Assembly (NCBI RefSeq): GCF_051903065.1
Contig: NZ_CP178438.1
Direction: 5' to 3' (one strand)
Origin: Escherichia coli
GTDB lineage: Bacteria; Pseudomonadota; Gammaproteobacteria; Enterobacterales; Enterobacteriaceae
Length of the DNA: 64,000 nucleotides
Made by a program: the position numbers and the translations under genes. A model generated the notes under the pieces. That model was not told the origin of the DNA, did not search any database, and saw nothing but the letters and a program-made list of their open reading frames with translations. Below are positions 3,100-64,000 of the stretch, piece by piece; the first letter of the stretch is position 1; each line of letters begins with the position of its first letter.

Positions 3100-4053
3100 T
3101 TAACTACGTAAAATCGCCGCTGCTGTGTCCTGATCGGTAACCAGTGCGTTGATATAACCGCCTTTCATTGCAGCGGCAATTGCTTCGGCTTTATTTTCTC
3201 CCCCTGCCACGCCAACCCGGACGGGTATGGTCTTCAGCGCGCTTAAAGGTAAGCCAATCAGTTCGTTATGTATTTTGATATCCGTGACAACGTCACCTTT
3301 TGCATCAAAAAAGTAGCCTAAAATGTCGCCAACCGCCCCTTTTCGGCCAATCATTAACTGTTCGCCCTGGCTGATATAACCGGAGCGAATGATCGTCGCG
3401 TCGTCTTGTTGACTCACGGCCCCAATGCCGACAATCGCCACATCCGCTGCTTGCGCGGCTAACAGAACATCTTTGACGCAATTTTCATTTTTTAGCGTAC
3501 GGGCAATGTCAGCGGAGGATGCCCGCAACGGAGCCGGAATAATATTCACACTGCACGCCGCGTTAAGCTGTCCGATACCCGTCATATAAGAACCGACGCC
3601 ACCGGAGAGCGTGACCAGGCGAATTTGCTGTGACGAAATAAAACCACTTAAGCGTTGCAGCGTATTCATGGTTGCCTCGCCAAAACCAATCGCCAGCATC
3701 TGTTGTGGTTGAAGTAAACTCATCAACATATGCGCCGCGCCTATCCCCAGTCGCCCGCCGACATCAGCATCCGCAAGCCCAGGGATCACCCGGACATGTT
3801 GCAGCGAAAACTGACTACGTAATTGTGTTTCATATTCCAGACAGCCTTCAAAGCGAGAATTAATCTGCACGCGAATGATGCCGGACTGATGCCCTTTCTC
3901 CAGTAATCGCGACACTTTCAAACGGGTCAGGCCGAGACGATCGCTGATCTCACTCTGGGTCAGCCCGTCGTGGTAGTAAAACCACGCGATCCGCGCGACC
4001 TGTTCTTCTTCACACATTCCCTGTTCTGAAATTGCCGAATCGTTGATTGTCAT
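3100..4053 (-). CDS. lsrR: lsr operon transcriptional repressor (SorC/DeoR-like)
   Basis: 317-aa ORF with N-terminal HTH and sugar-phosphate-binding C-terminal domain; sits between lsrK and divergent lsrA. Confidence 0.9.
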
Positions 4054-55741: not shown

Positions 55742-55897
55742 TTACTCCTCAGGTTCGTAAGCTGTGAAGACAGCGACCTCCGTCTGGCCGGTTCGGATTC
55801 GTACCTCGCAGAGGTCTTTCCTCGTTACCAGTGCCGTCACTATGACGGTTAAACAGATGACGATCAGGGCGATTAACATCGCCTTTTGCTGCTTCAT
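55742..55897 (-). CDS. hokD: Hok-family type I toxin (51 aa)
   Basis: Read from DNA: MKQQKAMLIALIVICLTVIVTALVTRKDLCEVRIRTGQTEVAVFTAYEPEE. Confidence 0.85.
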   Translation of the reverse strand: MKQQKAMLIALIVICLTVIVTALVTRKDLCEVRIRTGQTEVAVFTAYEPEE

Positions 55898-55968
55898 AGC
55901 CTGCTTCTCCTGTCAACGCAAAGCAGAAGTGTCACCTTCGGTGCGAAACAGAGATGTCATGCTTTGGT

Positions 55969-56825: not shown

Positions 56826-57027
56826 AGGAACGTAACACGTTTTATGCAACACCCGCATGCGGCAGAAAATTATTGCCGAACGTTTACCCCTGTCAACAAG
56901 CTTTACTTTCTGAGGCGCGCCAGCCCGCGAGGAAAACAATCTGAACATCAAACAATTAATGACACAAGAAATACGATTAAAGATTTTTTTGTACATGCCG
57001 ATAGTGCTTTTTTAAAAGGAGAAATCT

Positions 57028-57360
57028 ATGTCTGTCACAATTCAGGGAAATACCTCAACCGTTATTTCAAACAACTCCGCCCCGGAAGGAACATCAGAAA
57101 TAGCCAAAATCACAAGACAAATTCAGGTGCTGACTGAAAAGCTTGGGAAAATCTCATCGGAAGAGGGGATGACGACACAGCAGAAAAAAGAAATGGCTGC
57201 ATTGGTACAGAAGCAAATTGAAAGCCTCTGGGCTCAACTGGAGCAGTTGTTAAGGCAGCAGGCAGAGAAAAAGAATGAAGACGCGACAGTTCAGCCTGAT
57301 AAAAAAGAAGAGAAAAAAGACGATACAAATACCGCTGGCACCATTGATATTTACGTCTAA
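57028..57360 (+). CDS. flxA: FlxA (FliA-regulated protein)
   Basis: 110-aa ORF MSVTIQGNTSTVISNNSAPEGTSEIAKITRQIQVLTEKLGK... Confidence 0.85.
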   Translation: MSVTIQGNTSTVISNNSAPEGTSEIAKITRQIQVLTEKLGKISSEEGMTTQQKKEMAALVQKQIESLWAQLEQLLRQQAEKKNEDATVQPDKKEEKKDDTNTAGTIDIYV

Positions 57361-57373
57361 GTGACAGCCGTAT

Positions 57374-57402
57374 TGTGGCCCTCATCGGGCCACTTTTCGC
57401 CA
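57374..57402 (+). terminator. Candidate terminator after flxA
   Basis: TGGCCCTCATCGGGCCA stem followed by CTTTTCG. Confidence 0.45.
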
Positions 57403-57796
57403 TCAGCCTTTTCTTTAAAGACATATTATCTTTGTATCATTTCTGATAGTTAACATTACAAGATATAAGTAATGGACGCACTCCCAATTAGTCTATTTAA
57501 ATCGCCACGAGTTTAACTGACAACCCATGATCAATTATGAATTGCAACTATTTCTGTAGTCACTTTTGTGGGGACAGTCCACAAAACTGCCAACTTCCGC
57601 TTCTTGCTCTTAGCGGACATTAGCATAGGCTATTTACCATAACGCCTCATTACGCACACCGCCCAGACTGACTCAGCGCGTTTCTGGCATATCCCCGGTA
57701 AAACAAGTAACAAACCACCCGAAAATGAACACCAGAAACGCGACTTAAGAATCTACCCTATGAATGGATATGCACTCAACCGAATCGATCTTGGTT

Positions 57797-59110
57797 TCAA
57801 TCTTTTTTATCGGGATCAGGCTTCTTTTTAGGTAACTTCGGGGGCTTAACTTGCTGATGACTTTGCGTTCGGCGCGTAAGCCAGGGATGGTCAGCTTTAG
57901 GTTTAACATAGTATTTTGAGCGTAAATCAATACGGGCATTATCCACTCGTTCATGGACACTCTTTTCATCATCCGGTGGTATAGGCTCCGGGCCATCAAC
58001 ATACTTTTCCCAGCCCAGCGCTTTCCCGTCATACAGAACGTTAATTTCACCGTCAAAGTTCTCGCATACAGTAACAACCGAATGCCTAAGTCGATATCCC
58101 CGGCCCTCACTGCGTACCTGAAACGCACTGCTTTTGTACTGGAAAGTGAGATTTTTAGACAGAACGCGCTTCGCCTGTAGGCTGAAGATATAACCCAGTT
58201 CCTCTTCAGAATGGTGCACATCAAGATGAGCATTATCAGTAGTACGAGGCGACGTAGCGAACCGGTTGTTATAGGCTTCAATAAAGGTCGGCAACCATGC
58301 ATTTGCTGTTTCAATATCACTGATATTCTGAAGCCGCATTTCTTTGACCAGCCTGTCCTGTAGTGTCTGATTGGCGCGCTCTACCCGCCCTTTTGCCTGC
58401 GGGCTGTTGGCATGGATTGGCTCGATGCCCAGTGTCTTTATCGCACGAGTGAACTGGGTCAGCTCACCTTCCCGCTCTGGGTTATTTACCCTGAATATAC
58501 TGTGTCTATCAGAGTAGAGAGCGAGCGGTACGCCATGATCATTAAGGTAACCCCGGAGGGTTTCCATGTAAGCCCGGGTTGTTTCAGCAGGCACAAAACG
58601 CAACGCCATCAACGCACTGGTGGCATCATCAATGAAAACGATCAGTGTACATCTGGGGCCTCGATTTTCAAACCAGTCATGAGATGAGCCATCAATCTGG
58701 ATCAGTTCACCGTAAGATGGTCGTCGCATGCGGCGTTGATATATACGGGCAATTTTACGACGGCGTTCACGCCATAACCCCTCTTCTATCATCCACTTTC
58801 TGAGAGTTTCAACGGATAAAGATAAACCGTGTATCTCGCGCAATTTTTCGCACGCAAACGTAGGTCCAAAATCAGCGTAACGGCCTTTGAGGAGTGAAAT
58901 TACTGTTGCTCTGAATTCAGTAGAAAAGGAATTATTAGGACGCTTTCCACGTCGGTGGGAAACCAGACCAGAAGGCCCTTCATTTCTATACCGTTGCACC
59001 AGACGTTTAACCTGCCGAATAGAAATGCCAATGCGTGCCGCAGCTTGTTCCTGAATAATCTGAAGTCGGTGGAGTTCCTTATGACTCATCGTAACAGTCT
59101 CTTTGATCAT
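57797..59110 (-). CDS. Single-ORF DDE transposase with N-terminal HTH and rve integrase core (IS481-like; family uncertain)
   Basis: 437-aa ORF; candidate DDE residues in ...IQIDGSSHDW..., ...LYSDRHS..., ...KGRVERANQT...; Lys/Pro-rich C-terminal tail; no companion helper ORF. Confidence 0.7.
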   Translation of the reverse strand: MIKETVTMSHKELHRLQIIQEQAAARIGISIRQVKRLVQRYRNEGPSGLVSHRRGKRPNNSFSTEFRATVISLLKGRYADFGPTFACEKLREIHGLSLSVETLRKWMIEEGLWRERRRKIARIYQRRMRRPSYGELIQIDGSSHDWFENRGPRCTLIVFIDDATSALMALRFVPAETTRAYMETLRGYLNDHGVPLALYSDRHSIFRVNNPEREGELTQFTRAIKTLGIEPIHANSPQAKGRVERANQTLQDRLVKEMRLQNISDIETANAWLPTFIEAYNNRFATSPRTTDNAHLDVHHSEEELGYIFSLQAKRVLSKNLTFQYKSSAFQVRSEGRGYRLRHSVVTVCENFDGEINVLYDGKALGWEKYVDGPEPIPPDDEKSVHERVDNARIDLRSKYYVKPKADHPWLTRRTQSHQQVKPPKLPKKKPDPDKKD

Positions 59111-59444
59111 GAAAAATCCCCCAGAGAATTGTCTGGGGACATTTTAGAATGGTTCAAAGGGGACATTACAGCTTGGTGTTAACAATAGCCTGCTTCTCCG
59201 TGCCTTTCGGCACGTAAGAGGCTAACCTACATGTGTCTAGCATGAAATTGGCCTCAGATTAATGTTAAGCGTCTTGCAGGACGCGTAATGTTAACTGGGG
59301 CTTTTCTCTATCTGCCGTTGGTGTCCATGCCCGAGGCAGATAGCCTCAAGCACCCGCAGTCATTCTACTTAACTAAGATTTCCCCGCAAACCGTTTTTGT
59401 CCAGCACAGTAAATATCCAACTAAACCAATGGAGTTCGCTGTAT

Positions 59445-59663
59445 TTACCGCCAGTATTCAATGCACATGACCGCCATGAACACCCCTAAAAAAAGGGCAT
59501 TTATATATCCAAATATTAATATCAAAACATCAACTTTTTCCATATACCTTGCTGTGAAGATGATGGGCATACATGATGCGAACAACCAGAACGCAACAAA
59601 CAAAAACTGCAATGCGTTTTTCATTATTCCTCCTACAATCAATGTGCAATTACATTTAAACAC
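59445..59663 (-). CDS. Candidate small membrane protein (two predicted TM segments)
   Basis: ORF ...MKNALQFLFVAFWLFASCMPIIFTARYMEKVDVLILIFGYINALFLGVFMAVMCIEYWR; hydrophobic profile only, no homology assessed. Confidence 0.3.
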   Translation of the reverse strand: MFKCNCTLIVGGIMKNALQFLFVAFWLFASCMPIIFTARYMEKVDVLILIFGYINALFLGVFMAVMCIEYWR

Positions 59664-60776
59664 ACCTCAATTTGGCCGGACATATAAATATCTAAACCAG
59701 AAAAAATCACTTACATAGCGTTACAAACTCTTTAGTCTAAAGGTTCATCGTAAAACATTCCCCATACTTATCAGTCCGTTCCGCGCCAGGTAGCTCATTG
59801 CCTTATCTGGCAACCTGTAATCAGGTTTCCGCTTTTTCAGTTGGCTGGTCGTTTAACCGACATAGTTAATCCATTAATCTAGTTGCCGGATGTTGGTGGA
59901 TTTTCGCGTTTTAGTTGTTCATAAAAGTGCACAGCTTTAACCAGTTCTTCTGATGTAACTGGGACTGGTGAGGCAGTGAATAAGGCCTGAATTTGATAGT
60001 TCGGCCTGTCGTTACAATCCTCTTTTTTCGGTACATATTTCCAGTCACCAGACCACTACTTCCCCTGAAAGTCCGTAACGCCTTTTTTCACGTAGCGATA
60101 TCGCCATGCCACTGGTTTTGCTTGCCCCGCCGTTTCATGCCCTTCCTGATAATTAATCTCGCTCATTCATCGCCCCACTCATCACAATATGCTTCGACCG
60201 GAGTTTTTCCCGCTTCATAGTCATCACGCTAGGATTCGACATCAGCAGCACTTCCACCGCGTAACTCACCATAGTCCATTAATAGTTCATCCCGCTCTTC
60301 AAAACTGATGTTATATTTAGCTGAACAAAAATCAGCCACTTTGTTCTTCCTCATCGTCTTTTATTTCGTGGTATGAGTAATTGCAGTAGTTAAAGAAAAT
60401 TTCTTATGCTCCGTCATGAATTTCCTCAGGTGTTGCGTCATCGTCCACTTCGAATACATCCTCAAAATCTCCACCAGCTATTCCCGTTTCAATAATAATT
60501 TTGAACTTTCGCATTTCACTACCGCCCTTTCGGGCGGCCTCCTGATGTTCTGAGGGTGCAGAAATCCATCCGGTTAAGGATTAAATTTTATTTACAGAAC
60601 TGAATTTAATTATTCAGATATACGTATCTGTAGCCTTACGAATCTACTCACTGGATGCCTCTTTCATAAAAATAATCCAGTGGGTTTTATCGTTTTTTCC
60701 CTGTTCGTTGACAGATAACAGGTTTTCTGTCTGTCAGTGCCAGAATCTGGCTTACCGGTATTTGCGTTTCATTCCA

Positions 60777-61133
60777 TTAAAAAATCAGAACGCCGTGCGG
60801 CCTCAACACCCGAAAGGCTTCTTTAAATCTCTGTCGCGAATCATCACGCCAGGCATCTTTATTCAGCCGTCCATATTTCTTTCCCATCCAGGCGTTATCA
60901 CCAACACTCTCAAGATGCGGAGGGTCTAATACAACCATCGAAAAAGATGCGTCTGCAAATGATAATGCACGAAAATCTGCGATAATGTCAGGGCTGATAA
61001 TCAAGCGTCTCCCATTGCGTAATGTGTATCCTTCTTTTCTGATATCGCTGAATATCGCCCGTTCGTCAGACTTATCGAACCAGAACATGCGGCTGCCACA
61101 GCACATATCAAGAATGGTTGCCGGTGCACTCAC
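60777..61133 (-). pseudogene. SAM-dependent methyltransferase-like protein, probably truncated
   Basis: 118-aa ORF with SAM-binding-like ILDMCCGS and a DPPH motif (compare DPPY/DPPW of N6/N4 DNA methyltransferases); too short for a complete enzyme and followed by degraded coding sequence. Confidence 0.5.
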
Positions 61134-61552
61134 TGCGCCACGTCCTGAAAATTACCCTGATAGAAAGCCAGTATGCGCTGCATAACTTCGCTCTTCCGGC
61201 ACTCGCGACAGATTATGTTTAGGCGACTGTCGTAGCGACGTATTTCTCCGTCAGGTGATGACCAGATAAGGTCCGGATCAACCACAGCAGGTTTCTTCAC
61301 CTTTGCCCTCGAGAGTTTTTTGCGGGCGTTTTGCCAGTCCTTACGCGCCTGTTCAGAGGGGAATAACCCGTAGCCGGAGTTGTATACATCGCCACTGGCT
61401 ACCAGCTCTCTGGCAAGAACGCTCATCAGATATCTAGTCGCACCTGTTTTAGCTTCCAGTTGCCGTAACGTCTCACGGCCGCTCTGGCGCACGAGTTCCA
61501 CCACCTGCCATTTAATTTTTTCCCGCTCTTCTTGTGTAAAAACTTTTGCCAC
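61130..61552 (-). CDS. Hypothetical prophage early protein (140 aa)
   Basis: Uninterrupted ORF within the early-right operon; Lys/Arg-rich middle and CxxC near the C-terminus; function unknown. Confidence 0.5.
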   Translation of the reverse strand: MAKVFTQEEREKIKWQVVELVRQSGRETLRQLEAKTGATRYLMSVLARELVASGDVYNSGYGLFPSEQARKDWQNARKKLSRAKVKKPAVVDPDLIWSSPDGEIRRYDSRLNIICRECRKSEVMQRILAFYQGNFQDVAQ

Positions 61553-61592
61553 AAGTCCCCCTTAAAATTACCTCATGACCTGAAATCAACAC

Positions 61593-62612
61593 TTATCCTC
61601 TGAAACCAGGCGGAATTTCTGTATCCGGTTCAGAAATATGATTAACACAACGCTGTACAGGTGAACGTCCCAGGCGGATGACCAGTTCGTCCCATTTTTC
61701 GAGGAGCTTTGACGGGCTCATGATGTTTTTTACCCAGAATGGATCTCGCTGAACCCGACCAAACATTTCGCAAATTTGTCTGTGGCTTCTGCCATCCAGC
61801 ATCCGCATTGTGCGCACGTCATTGGCCCAGGCAGTCCAGTTAGGCTCTTTTGGTCGCATGATCTCGCCATCATCACTGGCTGCCTGTTCGTAGAGACCCA
61901 CGATCCGCCCCCAGATCCACTGCGCACACGCCAAATCCTCCCTGCTACCCCACTGGCGTTTTTTCGCACTAAACACAACCGCGTCGGAGTTCCGGGTTAA
62001 AAAATCCTGTTCAGTCGTCTGCGGGTCCGGTTGCGAAGCTTCCGGACGAAAAGTGTTTTTATTCTCTGTAGTAATCTCTGTTGTATTCTCTGTAAGATCA
62101 TCAGGCCATTTTGACCCGATGACATTGGGTCGTTTTGAACCAATGGAGCGTTTCATTTTGACCTCTTCCATCGTGTCATTTTGACCTGATGGAGCGGCGC
62201 ATTTTGAACCGATGGATTCGCTCAATTTGCCACCATCTAAAAGCTCGCTCCCATAGTTGATCGTGTAGAAATTGGTCATATCGCGCTTTGATTTATTGAG
62301 CTTTTCACAACGCAAAAGCCCCAGCGTTTTCAGACTTGCAAACGCGCGCTTTAACGTTGACTCTGACCAGAATGGGAACTGTTCCAGCCATTGTTCCGTT
62401 GTGTTATAAATCCAGCGAACACCATCACATTCCATGCCGGAGTTGGTATCTCTCAACCAGTAGTGCAGTTGTTGCAAAACAATGGCTTCGTTTAAGCCAA
62501 TTTTCATTGCCAGCTGCGTGTTTATAACCAGTGGGCGTTCAGCAAAAAGAAGGCTCATAATTCCATCCAGCTTTTTGTTGGTATTGCTGTCGATACGCAA
62601 GTTTGAAAGCAA
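61593..62612 (-). CDS. Putative phage replication initiation / replisome organiser protein (O-like position)
   Basis: 339-aa ORF in the position of lambda O; N-terminal region looks like a winged-helix phage replication organiser domain. Assignment by position and general resemblance only. Confidence 0.5.
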   Translation of the reverse strand: MLSNLRIDSNTNKKLDGIMSLLFAERPLVINTQLAMKIGLNEAIVLQQLHYWLRDTNSGMECDGVRWIYNTTEQWLEQFPFWSESTLKRAFASLKTLGLLRCEKLNKSKRDMTNFYTINYGSELLDGGKLSESIGSKCAAPSGQNDTMEEVKMKRSIGSKRPNVIGSKWPDDLTENTTEITTENKNTFRPEASQPDPQTTEQDFLTRNSDAVVFSAKKRQWGSREDLACAQWIWGRIVGLYEQAASDDGEIMRPKEPNWTAWANDVRTMRMLDGRSHRQICEMFGRVQRDPFWVKNIMSPSKLLEKWDELVIRLGRSPVQRCVNHISEPDTEIPPGFRG

Positions 62613-63060
62613 TTGCTTTTTCTATAAGTTCGTCAGTTTCACGATCCACTACGGCAGGATCAGCAAAAAGCAGTCCGGACTCCACCACATCGCCATATTC
62701 TTTGTTTAACCCGGCGATCATGCACGTGATGCTTTTTCCGTCAGTAATTTCACGATACAACCTGAAATCATTAATCCGGATAGCCTCCATAATTGCAGGC
62801 ACTAGCGCCGTGAACTTTTCACGCTTATCCCTGGTGTCGATAGCCTTCCAGCGTTCAAATATCTTCACTCGATTAACGCCAAGCGCTCGCTGATCAATCG
62901 CGCCACCTTCATATGTGACACGCTGAACATCGATGTTCGGGCGCTCTTTCAAAGCCCAGAATGCTTCAGTGATTAATATCGTCGCCTGCTCCTGTGTCAT
63001 TCCTGGTCGACATATCCAGGCATCCAGAGCCTCACGAGCCTGTTCAGGAGTGATTTTCAT
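62539..63060 (-). CDS. Phage early protein at the cII position (possibly YdaT-like)
   Basis: 173-aa ORF directly downstream of dicC on the minus strand; functional assignment tentative. Confidence 0.45.
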   Translation of the reverse strand: MKITPEQAREALDAWICRPGMTQEQATILITEAFWALKERPNIDVQRVTYEGGAIDQRALGVNRVKIFERWKAIDTRDKREKFTALVPAIMEAIRINDFRLYREITDGKSITCMIAGLNKEYGDVVESGLLFADPAVVDRETDELIEKAIAFKLAYRQQYQQKAGWNYEPSFC

Positions 63061-63274
63061 TGTTCAACCGCCCCGCCCGCTTCGTCTTACGATATTCATC
63101 ATAAACTTTGGGATCATACTGAAGCTCCCCGCCAGATGCCTCCTGTAGACGCATCGCGCGACCTTCGGGAACTAAATCCCCTTTCCAGCTATAAAGCGAA
63201 GCCAAACGAATACCTGCTGCTTGTGCAAGTTTTGTTTTTGAACCGAAATACAAAAGAGCGTCAGTTTTAAGCAT
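63044..63274 (-). CDS. dicC: Cro-like repressor DicC
   Basis: 76-aa ORF MLKTDALLYFGSKTKLAQAAGIRLASLYSWKGD... divergent from dicA. Confidence 0.9.
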   Translation of the reverse strand: MLKTDALLYFGSKTKLAQAAGIRLASLYSWKGDLVPEGRAMRLQEASGGELQYDPKVYDEYRKTKRAGRLNNENHS

Positions 63275-63357
63275 TTAAAACACCTTTATTGTTAGCCATA
63301 ACTAACAAGATAGATGTTAACAAAAACATAGTCAATACGATTTAGCATTAGCTAACT

Positions 63358-63765
63358 ATGGAAACAAAAAATTTAACTATCGGCGAACGCATCAGGTATC
63401 GTCGGAAAAACCTCAAACACACCCAAAGGTCTCTTGCTAAAGCCCTGAAAATCTCCCATGTGTCTGTATCACAATGGGAACGGGGTGATAGTGAACCTAC
63501 AGGGAAGAACCTTTTTGCCCTCAGCAAAGTATTGCAATGCTCACCAACATGGATTCTATTTGGCGATGAAGACAAGCAACCAACACCACCTGTTGAGAAG
63601 CCAGTTGCCTTATCCCCCAAAGAACTAGAGCTCCTTGAGCTGTTTAATGCACTGCCAGAATCAGAACAGGATACCCAGCTCGCCGAAATGCGAGCTCGAG
63701 TAAAAAACTTCAATAAACTCTTTGAAGAATTACTAAAAGCCCGTCAGCGGACAAATAAAAGATAA
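63358..63765 (+). CDS. dicA: Repressor DicA (HTH, controls dicB)
   Basis: 135-aa ORF METKNLTIGERIRYRRKNLKHTQRSLAKALKISHVSVSQWERGD... with Xre-type HTH. Confidence 0.9.
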   Translation: METKNLTIGERIRYRRKNLKHTQRSLAKALKISHVSVSQWERGDSEPTGKNLFALSKVLQCSPTWILFGDEDKQPTPPVEKPVALSPKELELLELFNALPESEQDTQLAEMRARVKNFNKLFEELLKARQRTNKR

Positions 63766-63931
63766 CATCATCAATGAGTTATCTTTTACCACATCAATTA
63801 TGTTAGCTATAGCATACAAAATCACTTGACCGATATGTTAGTCATGGCTAATCTTGTTTGCATCAACACACCGCACGGTGTTCTCAGCAAACAGTTCCGC
63901 TACCCCAGCGTTAAGGGGAAATGAGGTCAGC

Positions 63932-64000
63932 ATGGATACTATCGATCTTGGCAACAACGAATCTCTGGTGTACGGCGTGTTTCCAAACCAGGACGGCACG
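63932..64000 (+). CDS. ydfB: Small prophage protein, partial (window ends within the gene)
   Basis: ATG at 63932 opens MDTIDLGNNESLVYGVFPNQDGT...; symbol assumed from K-12 gene order after dicA. Confidence 0.4.
   Translation, partial: MDTIDLGNNESLVYGVFPNQDGT

Follow-up and report, generated by a model that had tools for sequence, protein, structure and literature searches.

The tract at positions 59745-60776 (minus strand) of the window, the 64,000-nucleotide stretch of Escherichia coli DNA that was analysed, is almost certainly a row of pseudogenes that belong to Qin, a defective lambdoid prophage, and lie in its early-right operon; decay has also reached the 3′ end of the adjacent methyltransferase gene. 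The tract is already flagged as pseudogene in public annotation, and is thus nothing new but genome decay of an ordinary kind: the RefSeq Qin pseudogenes called by PGAP occupy the same locus and have the same sequence, 100% identical in hundreds of genomes. An ORF map of positions 57000-64000, together with annotated matches, gives the surroundings. On the minus strand, dicC at the cro position (63274-63044), a YdaT-family gene (63060-62539), an O-like replication gene (62612-61593), a DUF977/‘LygF’ gene (61552-61130) and the methyltransferase ORF (61133-60777) precede the tract, and an ISNCY-type transposase ORF (59110-57797) follows it. On the plus strand, dicA (63358-63765) diverges from the operon and flxA (57028-57360) runs opposite to it; past flxA lie ydfV, relBE, hokD, rem and ydfU. 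The MG1655 annotation names this region ‘cryptic prophage Qin’. Positions 59400-61200 are 100% identical in the best 25 matches listed, and in 520 records the best match to this interval has at least 99% identity; carriers of the tract include ATCC 8739 and a record labelled DH5alpha. A promoter scan of the tract gave no excess over the shuffled expectation, and a search of the literature on Qin ydfX/ydfW, hokD and ECOR13 returned nothing specific to the tract.

What is left of the coding sequence? The initial annotation pointed to two minus-strand peptides, MRKFKIIIETGIAGGDFEDVFEVDDDATPEEIHDGA (60404..60514, 36 aa) and MRKNKVADFCSAKYNISFEERDELLMDYGELRGGSAADVES (60229..60354, 41 aa), and read them as parts of decayed genes instead of intergenic DNA. 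Both peptides exist, no minus-strand ORF between 59745 and 60776 exceeds 45 aa, and the reading as decayed coding sequence is borne out: every piece has an intact phage or prophage homologue, and PGAP marks pieces of the tract as pseudogenes. When the intact proteins are aligned to the tract by tblastn, the matches cross the stops, with E = 1e-38 for the 60-aa protein (gene A), 8e-34 for the 58-aa protein (gene B) and 8e-60 for the 171-aa protein (gene C); on these sequence comparisons, the similarity is far beyond chance. Intact copies of genes A and B occur in ON470612, PP818812, ArgO145 and strains KKa014, ESY002, OkiPb01697 and AR_451; intact copies of gene C occur in OkiPb01697, AR_451 and PP818812. 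Gene order, overlapping junctions and an intergenic hairpin are the same in the intact A-B-C cassettes (ON470612, PP818812, ArgO145, OkiPb01697) as in the window, at a nucleotide identity of about 88-94%. The difference is in the frames: in the intact cassettes A (60 aa; 57 aa in PP818812) and B (58 aa) are both open and under purifying selection, and some also have an open C (119 or 171 aa), whereas all three are broken in the window. Alignment with the intact homologues locates the lesions base by base.

The first casualty along the operon is a small class I SAM-dependent DNA methyltransferase gene (61133-60644, minus), whose extent follows from nucleotide alignment to its intact homologue, a 175-aa ORF in the Stx2c phage LC727889. 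Its open part, the 118-codon ORF at 61133..60777, stops at a TAA (60779-60777) where the homologue has AAA (Lys). After this stop the same frame runs on for 26 codons (WNETQIPVSQILALTDRKPVICQRTG); the frame is then lost to an additional G in the G-run at 60701-60699, and a TAG (60646-60644) closes the remnant. A frameshift at the methyltransferase T-run, the first guess, was rejected by the alignment, which has instead an A-to-T substitution that creates the TAA. The initial annotation had misplaced the upper boundary of the stretch between the genes, at 60776: positions 60776-60644 are the C-terminal ~44 codons of the methyltransferase beyond the TAA. The profile comparison fits this picture. 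Against phrog_954 (‘DNA methyltransferase’), the 118-aa ORF scores 196.6 bits and a repaired 162-aa product 265 bits; the open ORF covers only positions 52-165 of the 229 in the profile, and the remainder, to position 205, is recovered only when the TAA is skipped and the +1 frameshift is corrected. In other genomes, PGAP records a ‘SAM-dependent methyltransferase; frameshifted; internal stop’ that maps to 61088-60644; in many genomes, it takes the 118-aa stub as an ordinary CDS (WP_001310834.1). Methyltransferase-like elements, ILDMCCGS and DPPH, can be read in the retained part of the ORF; we take them to be catalytic motifs. The stub may conceivably retain some activity.

A conserved intergenic spacer of 129 nt (60643-60515, minus) separates the methyltransferase remnant from gene A. 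Along it lie an AGGAGG (60543-60538), a hairpin (GCCGCCC-GAAA-GGGCGGT, 60538-60521) and the gene A ATG at 60514; this arrangement is conserved in phages ON470612 and PP818812, and ArgO145 matches from the hairpin onward. The hairpin, lying between the AGGAGG and the start codon of gene A, might place the Shine-Dalgarno sequence close enough to the ATG. A 49-bp block around it recurs beside DUF4014 genes in many other E. coli prophages and resembles a module-junction sequence. Rfam has no match at E <= 1 within 59700-60776.

Gene A (60514-60332, minus) is a 60-codon pseudogene of the DUF7167/phrog_1997 family. Its codon 37 has changed from AAA, present in 7/7 homologues, to TAA (60406-60404), and four further non-synonymous changes are unique to the window. 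With the stop masked, the translation matches PF23768 over the entire profile (1-60/60; E = 3.1e-13, 50 bits against a cut-off of 24.4) and phrog_1997 at E = 2.4e-28; gene A therefore belongs to the DUF7167 family by its match and lacks an uninterrupted reading frame. PGAP calls it ‘DUF7167 family protein; internal stop’ at the same coordinates. Gene B (60339-60163, minus; 58 codons, phrog_519) shares 8 nt with gene A and 4 nt (ATGA) with gene C, and the intact versions have these overlaps too. It has lost its start codon (ATG to GTG, 60339-60337), codon 37 has changed from TGG to TAG (60231-60229), and Trp 16, invariant across eight intact homologues, has been replaced by Arg; window-unique changes amount to ~10 non-synonymous codons against 3 synonymous ones. 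The phrog_519 profile still matches the window copy (E = 1.3e-10), at 43 bits versus 83 bits for the intact protein, and an open frame with an ATG start is absent. PGAP leaves gene B unannotated. Read from their sequences, A and B are very acidic small proteins.

Gene C (60166-59745, minus; phrog_660), 171 aa when intact, carries four lesions by comparison with the intact WP_001289995.1 of strain OkiPb01697, used as the reference: (i) a CAG-to-TAG change at 60058-60056; (ii) a 90-bp in-frame deletion at ~59903/59902 between AATCC(A/G)CCAG repeats; (iii) a second in-frame TAG at 59881-59879; and (iv) a 4-bp deletion at 59848/59847, after which the original TGA is kept at 59747-59745. The N-terminal 93 codons match phrog_660 (E = 8.8e-29); the open frame of 119-190 aa that goes with membership in this family is missing. 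PGAP annotates a ‘hypothetical protein; frameshifted; internal stop’ at exactly 60166-59745. An origin of gene C by a deletion that joined two genes (in PP818812, of 119 aa and 181 aa) was considered and rejected, given the intact 171-aa single-gene homologue. In ON470612 (vB_EcoS-640R1), the 85-aa ‘hypothetical protein’ annotated at 3427-3684 stems from the same dead gene C and is an artefact of a frameshift: it has an A8 run instead of A6, and both the TAG and the 90-bp deletion of the window are present.

Over the four genes, the tally is five nonsense codons, two indels that shift the frame, a single in-frame deletion and the lost ATG of gene B. Five nonsense codons to two frameshifts is a slightly unusual mix, and the numbers are too small to mean anything. 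The description of these genes as frameshifted is mostly wrong, given the five in-frame stops against two frameshifting indels and the in-frame 90-bp deletion. The idea that each short frame continues in another frame is wrong for most of the tract: it is right for the gene C tail, displaced by the 4-bp deletion, and for the methyltransferase tail, displaced by the extra G, but genes A and B, the first part of C and most of the methyltransferase continue in the same frame.

Could so many interruptions be errors of sequencing or assembly? The +1 G does sit in a short homopolymer run, where such an error might be suspected. However, the lesions are mostly substitutions, base-by-base checks of fully overlapping records gave an identical sequence in each, the complete genomes listed, which come from many laboratories, agree at 100% identity, and alleles that have diverged by ~1% keep all of the stops; this explanation is hardly credible. 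Could ribosomes instead read across the stops, whether by programmed recoding or with the help of a suppressor tRNA, and still make full-length proteins? An in-frame stop in each of four adjacent genes, with the frame intact right after it, speaks for such a mechanism. Yet both TAA and TAG occur among the stops, in place of the sense codons AAA, AAA, TGG and CAG of the homologues, and no tRNA gene was found in the window. Read-through would also have to contend with frameshifting indels in the methyltransferase gene and gene C and with the 90-bp deletion in the latter, and substitutions in the window lineage appear unconstrained. We consider read-through highly improbable, if a shade less so than error, and return to the reading that the four genes are dead.

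The substitutions themselves argue for this. The full-length A and B are real genes under strong purifying selection: comparisons among seven intact A+B pairs, at dS ~0.2, yield dN/dS of 0.04-0.10, with 10-11 synonymous versus 2-3 non-synonymous differences in an example. In the window copies of A and B, ~14 non-synonymous codons (including the 2 stops, the lost ATG and the invariant Trp) versus 5 synonymous ones are unique to the window, against a non-synonymous-to-synonymous ratio of ~1:4 in intact copies. The pattern in the window comes near to what neutrality predicts and is opposite to that in intact copies. Decay also continues. Qin copies that are ~0.7-0.9% diverged retain all stops, and the Qin allele of strain ZYS9073 has changed the TAG to TAA at 60229 and has acquired a 1-bp deletion at 60082. 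An IS1, IS3, IS4, IS5, ISKpn26 or IS903B element sits inside 59400-61200 in 14 of the best 25 E. coli matches, and K-12 MG1655 lacks 57982-62780 of the window (4.8 kb), the whole tract included. Relaxed constraint and independent lesions in sister lineages, the two marks of neutral decay, are thus both found.

If the tract is so widespread, might the short ORFs be genuine small genes, such that the 36-aa N-terminal DUF7167 peptide and the 41-aa peptide are selected in their truncated form? Each ORF retains a start codon and the upstream AGGAGG/hairpin context, and several hundred E. coli genomes have the sequence at 100% identity. This identity, however, reflects recent common descent of one prophage and not constraint. 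The window-unique changes are mostly non-synonymous, in contrast to the low dN/dS of the intact homologues; the sequence past each stop aligns in frame with the full-length proteins; gene B is without its ATG and an invariant Trp; and the diverged Qin copies with their new lesions, the IS insertions in other strains and the MG1655 deletion all speak of a sequence free to change. The short ORFs are not conserved as such, and that they are small genes in their own right is very unlikely. The reading as pseudogenes stands.

The order in which the genes died can be read from the distribution of their lesions. The first TAG and the 90-bp deletion of gene C are common to the prophages of KKa014 and ESY002 and to ON470612. 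Since all three have open A and B, gene C was dead before the Qin lineage split off. By contrast with these shared lesions, those of the methyltransferase, A and B are seen only in Qin alleles.

How does the tract relate to the nin region of lambda, from whose genes the initial annotation derived it? In lambda, the nin region is dispensable (nin5 deletion), and its accessory genes separate the replication genes from the late-gene antiterminator; the tract occupies the equivalent map position: the order is dicC(cro)-ydaT-O-like-DUF977-methyltransferase-A-B-C, then hokD-rem-ydfU, and in the relative ON470612 it runs on via ydfU and rusA to the antitermination protein Q. The lambda nin proteins, unlike the map position, find no counterpart, having no sequence similarity to the tract or to its intact homologues. 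The nine proteins Ren and NinB-NinI (tblastn, blastp) reached at best E = 0.26 in window positions 59300-61300; no hit in the entire window had E <= 1e-3, and with intact A, B and C the E-value was never below 0.07. Phage ArgO145 carries the A-B pair among ead/Ea22-like genes, a non-nin position. The tract is thus nin by position and not by descent; the attribution to nin-region genes holds for the map and fails for homology. A separate observation concerns the neighbouring gene: the DUF977/‘LygF’ homologue of ON470612 and lambda Ren share a 20-residue stretch of 60% identity (E = 7e-6). As to what the ancestral proteins did, sequence searches of Pfam, NCBIfam, PHROGs and the PDB led only to DUF families or families of unknown function, and the best solved relative in the PDB was a designed protein at E = 0.0016.

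Several features downstream of the tract deserve mention in their own right. An unannotated ORF of 59 codons (59445-59624, minus; MKNALQFLFVAFWLF...) would encode a very hydrophobic peptide and has an AGGAGG 6 nt before its ATG. It differs from three relatives by 1 substitution in 180 nt, and their downstream flank is several-fold more divergent; Pfam, PHROG and NCBIfam hold no match to it. The ORF opposite, annotated as ‘hornerin’ in ON470612, seems spurious. A full-length Rfam match to sok (RF01794, 104 bits) lies at 59184-59355 on the minus strand. Homology to intact hok/sok prophage loci reaches 59185 and resumes at 55911, at the ribosome-binding site/ATG of hokD (55897). The 3.3 kb between hold the ISNCY transposase, flxA, ydfV and relBE, and are flanked by a 15-bp direct repeat, GGAGAAGCAGGCTAT (copies at 55896-55910 and 59185-59199). 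The homology break and this repeat indicate that hokD in Qin was split from its sok/mok leader by an inserted block. The ISNCY-type (rve-like) transposase ORF (57797-59110, minus; 437 aa) is intact; terminal inverted repeats were sought for it and no clear ones found. PGAP splits this ORF into an ‘incomplete’ pseudogene and ‘YdfW’, and does so even where a genome matches the window at 100% identity; K-12 ‘ydfW’ corresponds to the last 49 codons of the 437-aa ORF. The MG1655 deletion fuses the N-terminal part of the YdaT-family gene (‘ydfX’) to this C-terminal end of the transposase.

Why would four adjacent genes have died? A, B, C and the methyltransferase are accessory genes of unknown function that, in intact lambdoid phages, lie between the replication genes and the hok/ydfU/rusA/Q block. 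In the history that we propose for a prophage unable to finish the lytic cycle, the early operon would presumably be silenced by the DicA repressor; with selection on the four genes gone, nonsense substitutions, small indels and a repeat-mediated deletion would pile up, with gene C hit first and the methyltransferase, A and B only afterwards, in the Qin lineage. The tract would now be functionless and vertically inherited, eroding by point lesions, IS insertions and, in K-12, deletion. Loss of selection in a repressed, defective prophage is thus the probable cause, and we infer that no residual function is left. One record suggests a variation on this history: PV340562 (‘Escherichia phage PhiR42_1, complete genome’, from ECOR13) has the same decayed tract at 99.9% identity, which may mean that some carriers are complete, even active, phages. 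The decay would then perhaps stem from dispensability of the genes and not from the death of the whole prophage.

At the level of annotation, two corrections follow: gene B is a pseudogene that annotation has missed, and what is listed as a 118-aa ‘methyltransferase’ CDS is a truncated stub. There is a slim chance that one or more of the stubs (the 36-aa acidic DUF7167 half, the 41-aa gene B product and/or the 118-aa methyltransferase) are translated from the AGGAGG/hairpin leader and have been co-opted by the host; if true, this would explain why the tract is retained across hundreds of E. coli lineages. On the favoured reading as dead genes, the tract lets the stepwise decay of genes in a domesticated prophage be followed cleanly, base by base.
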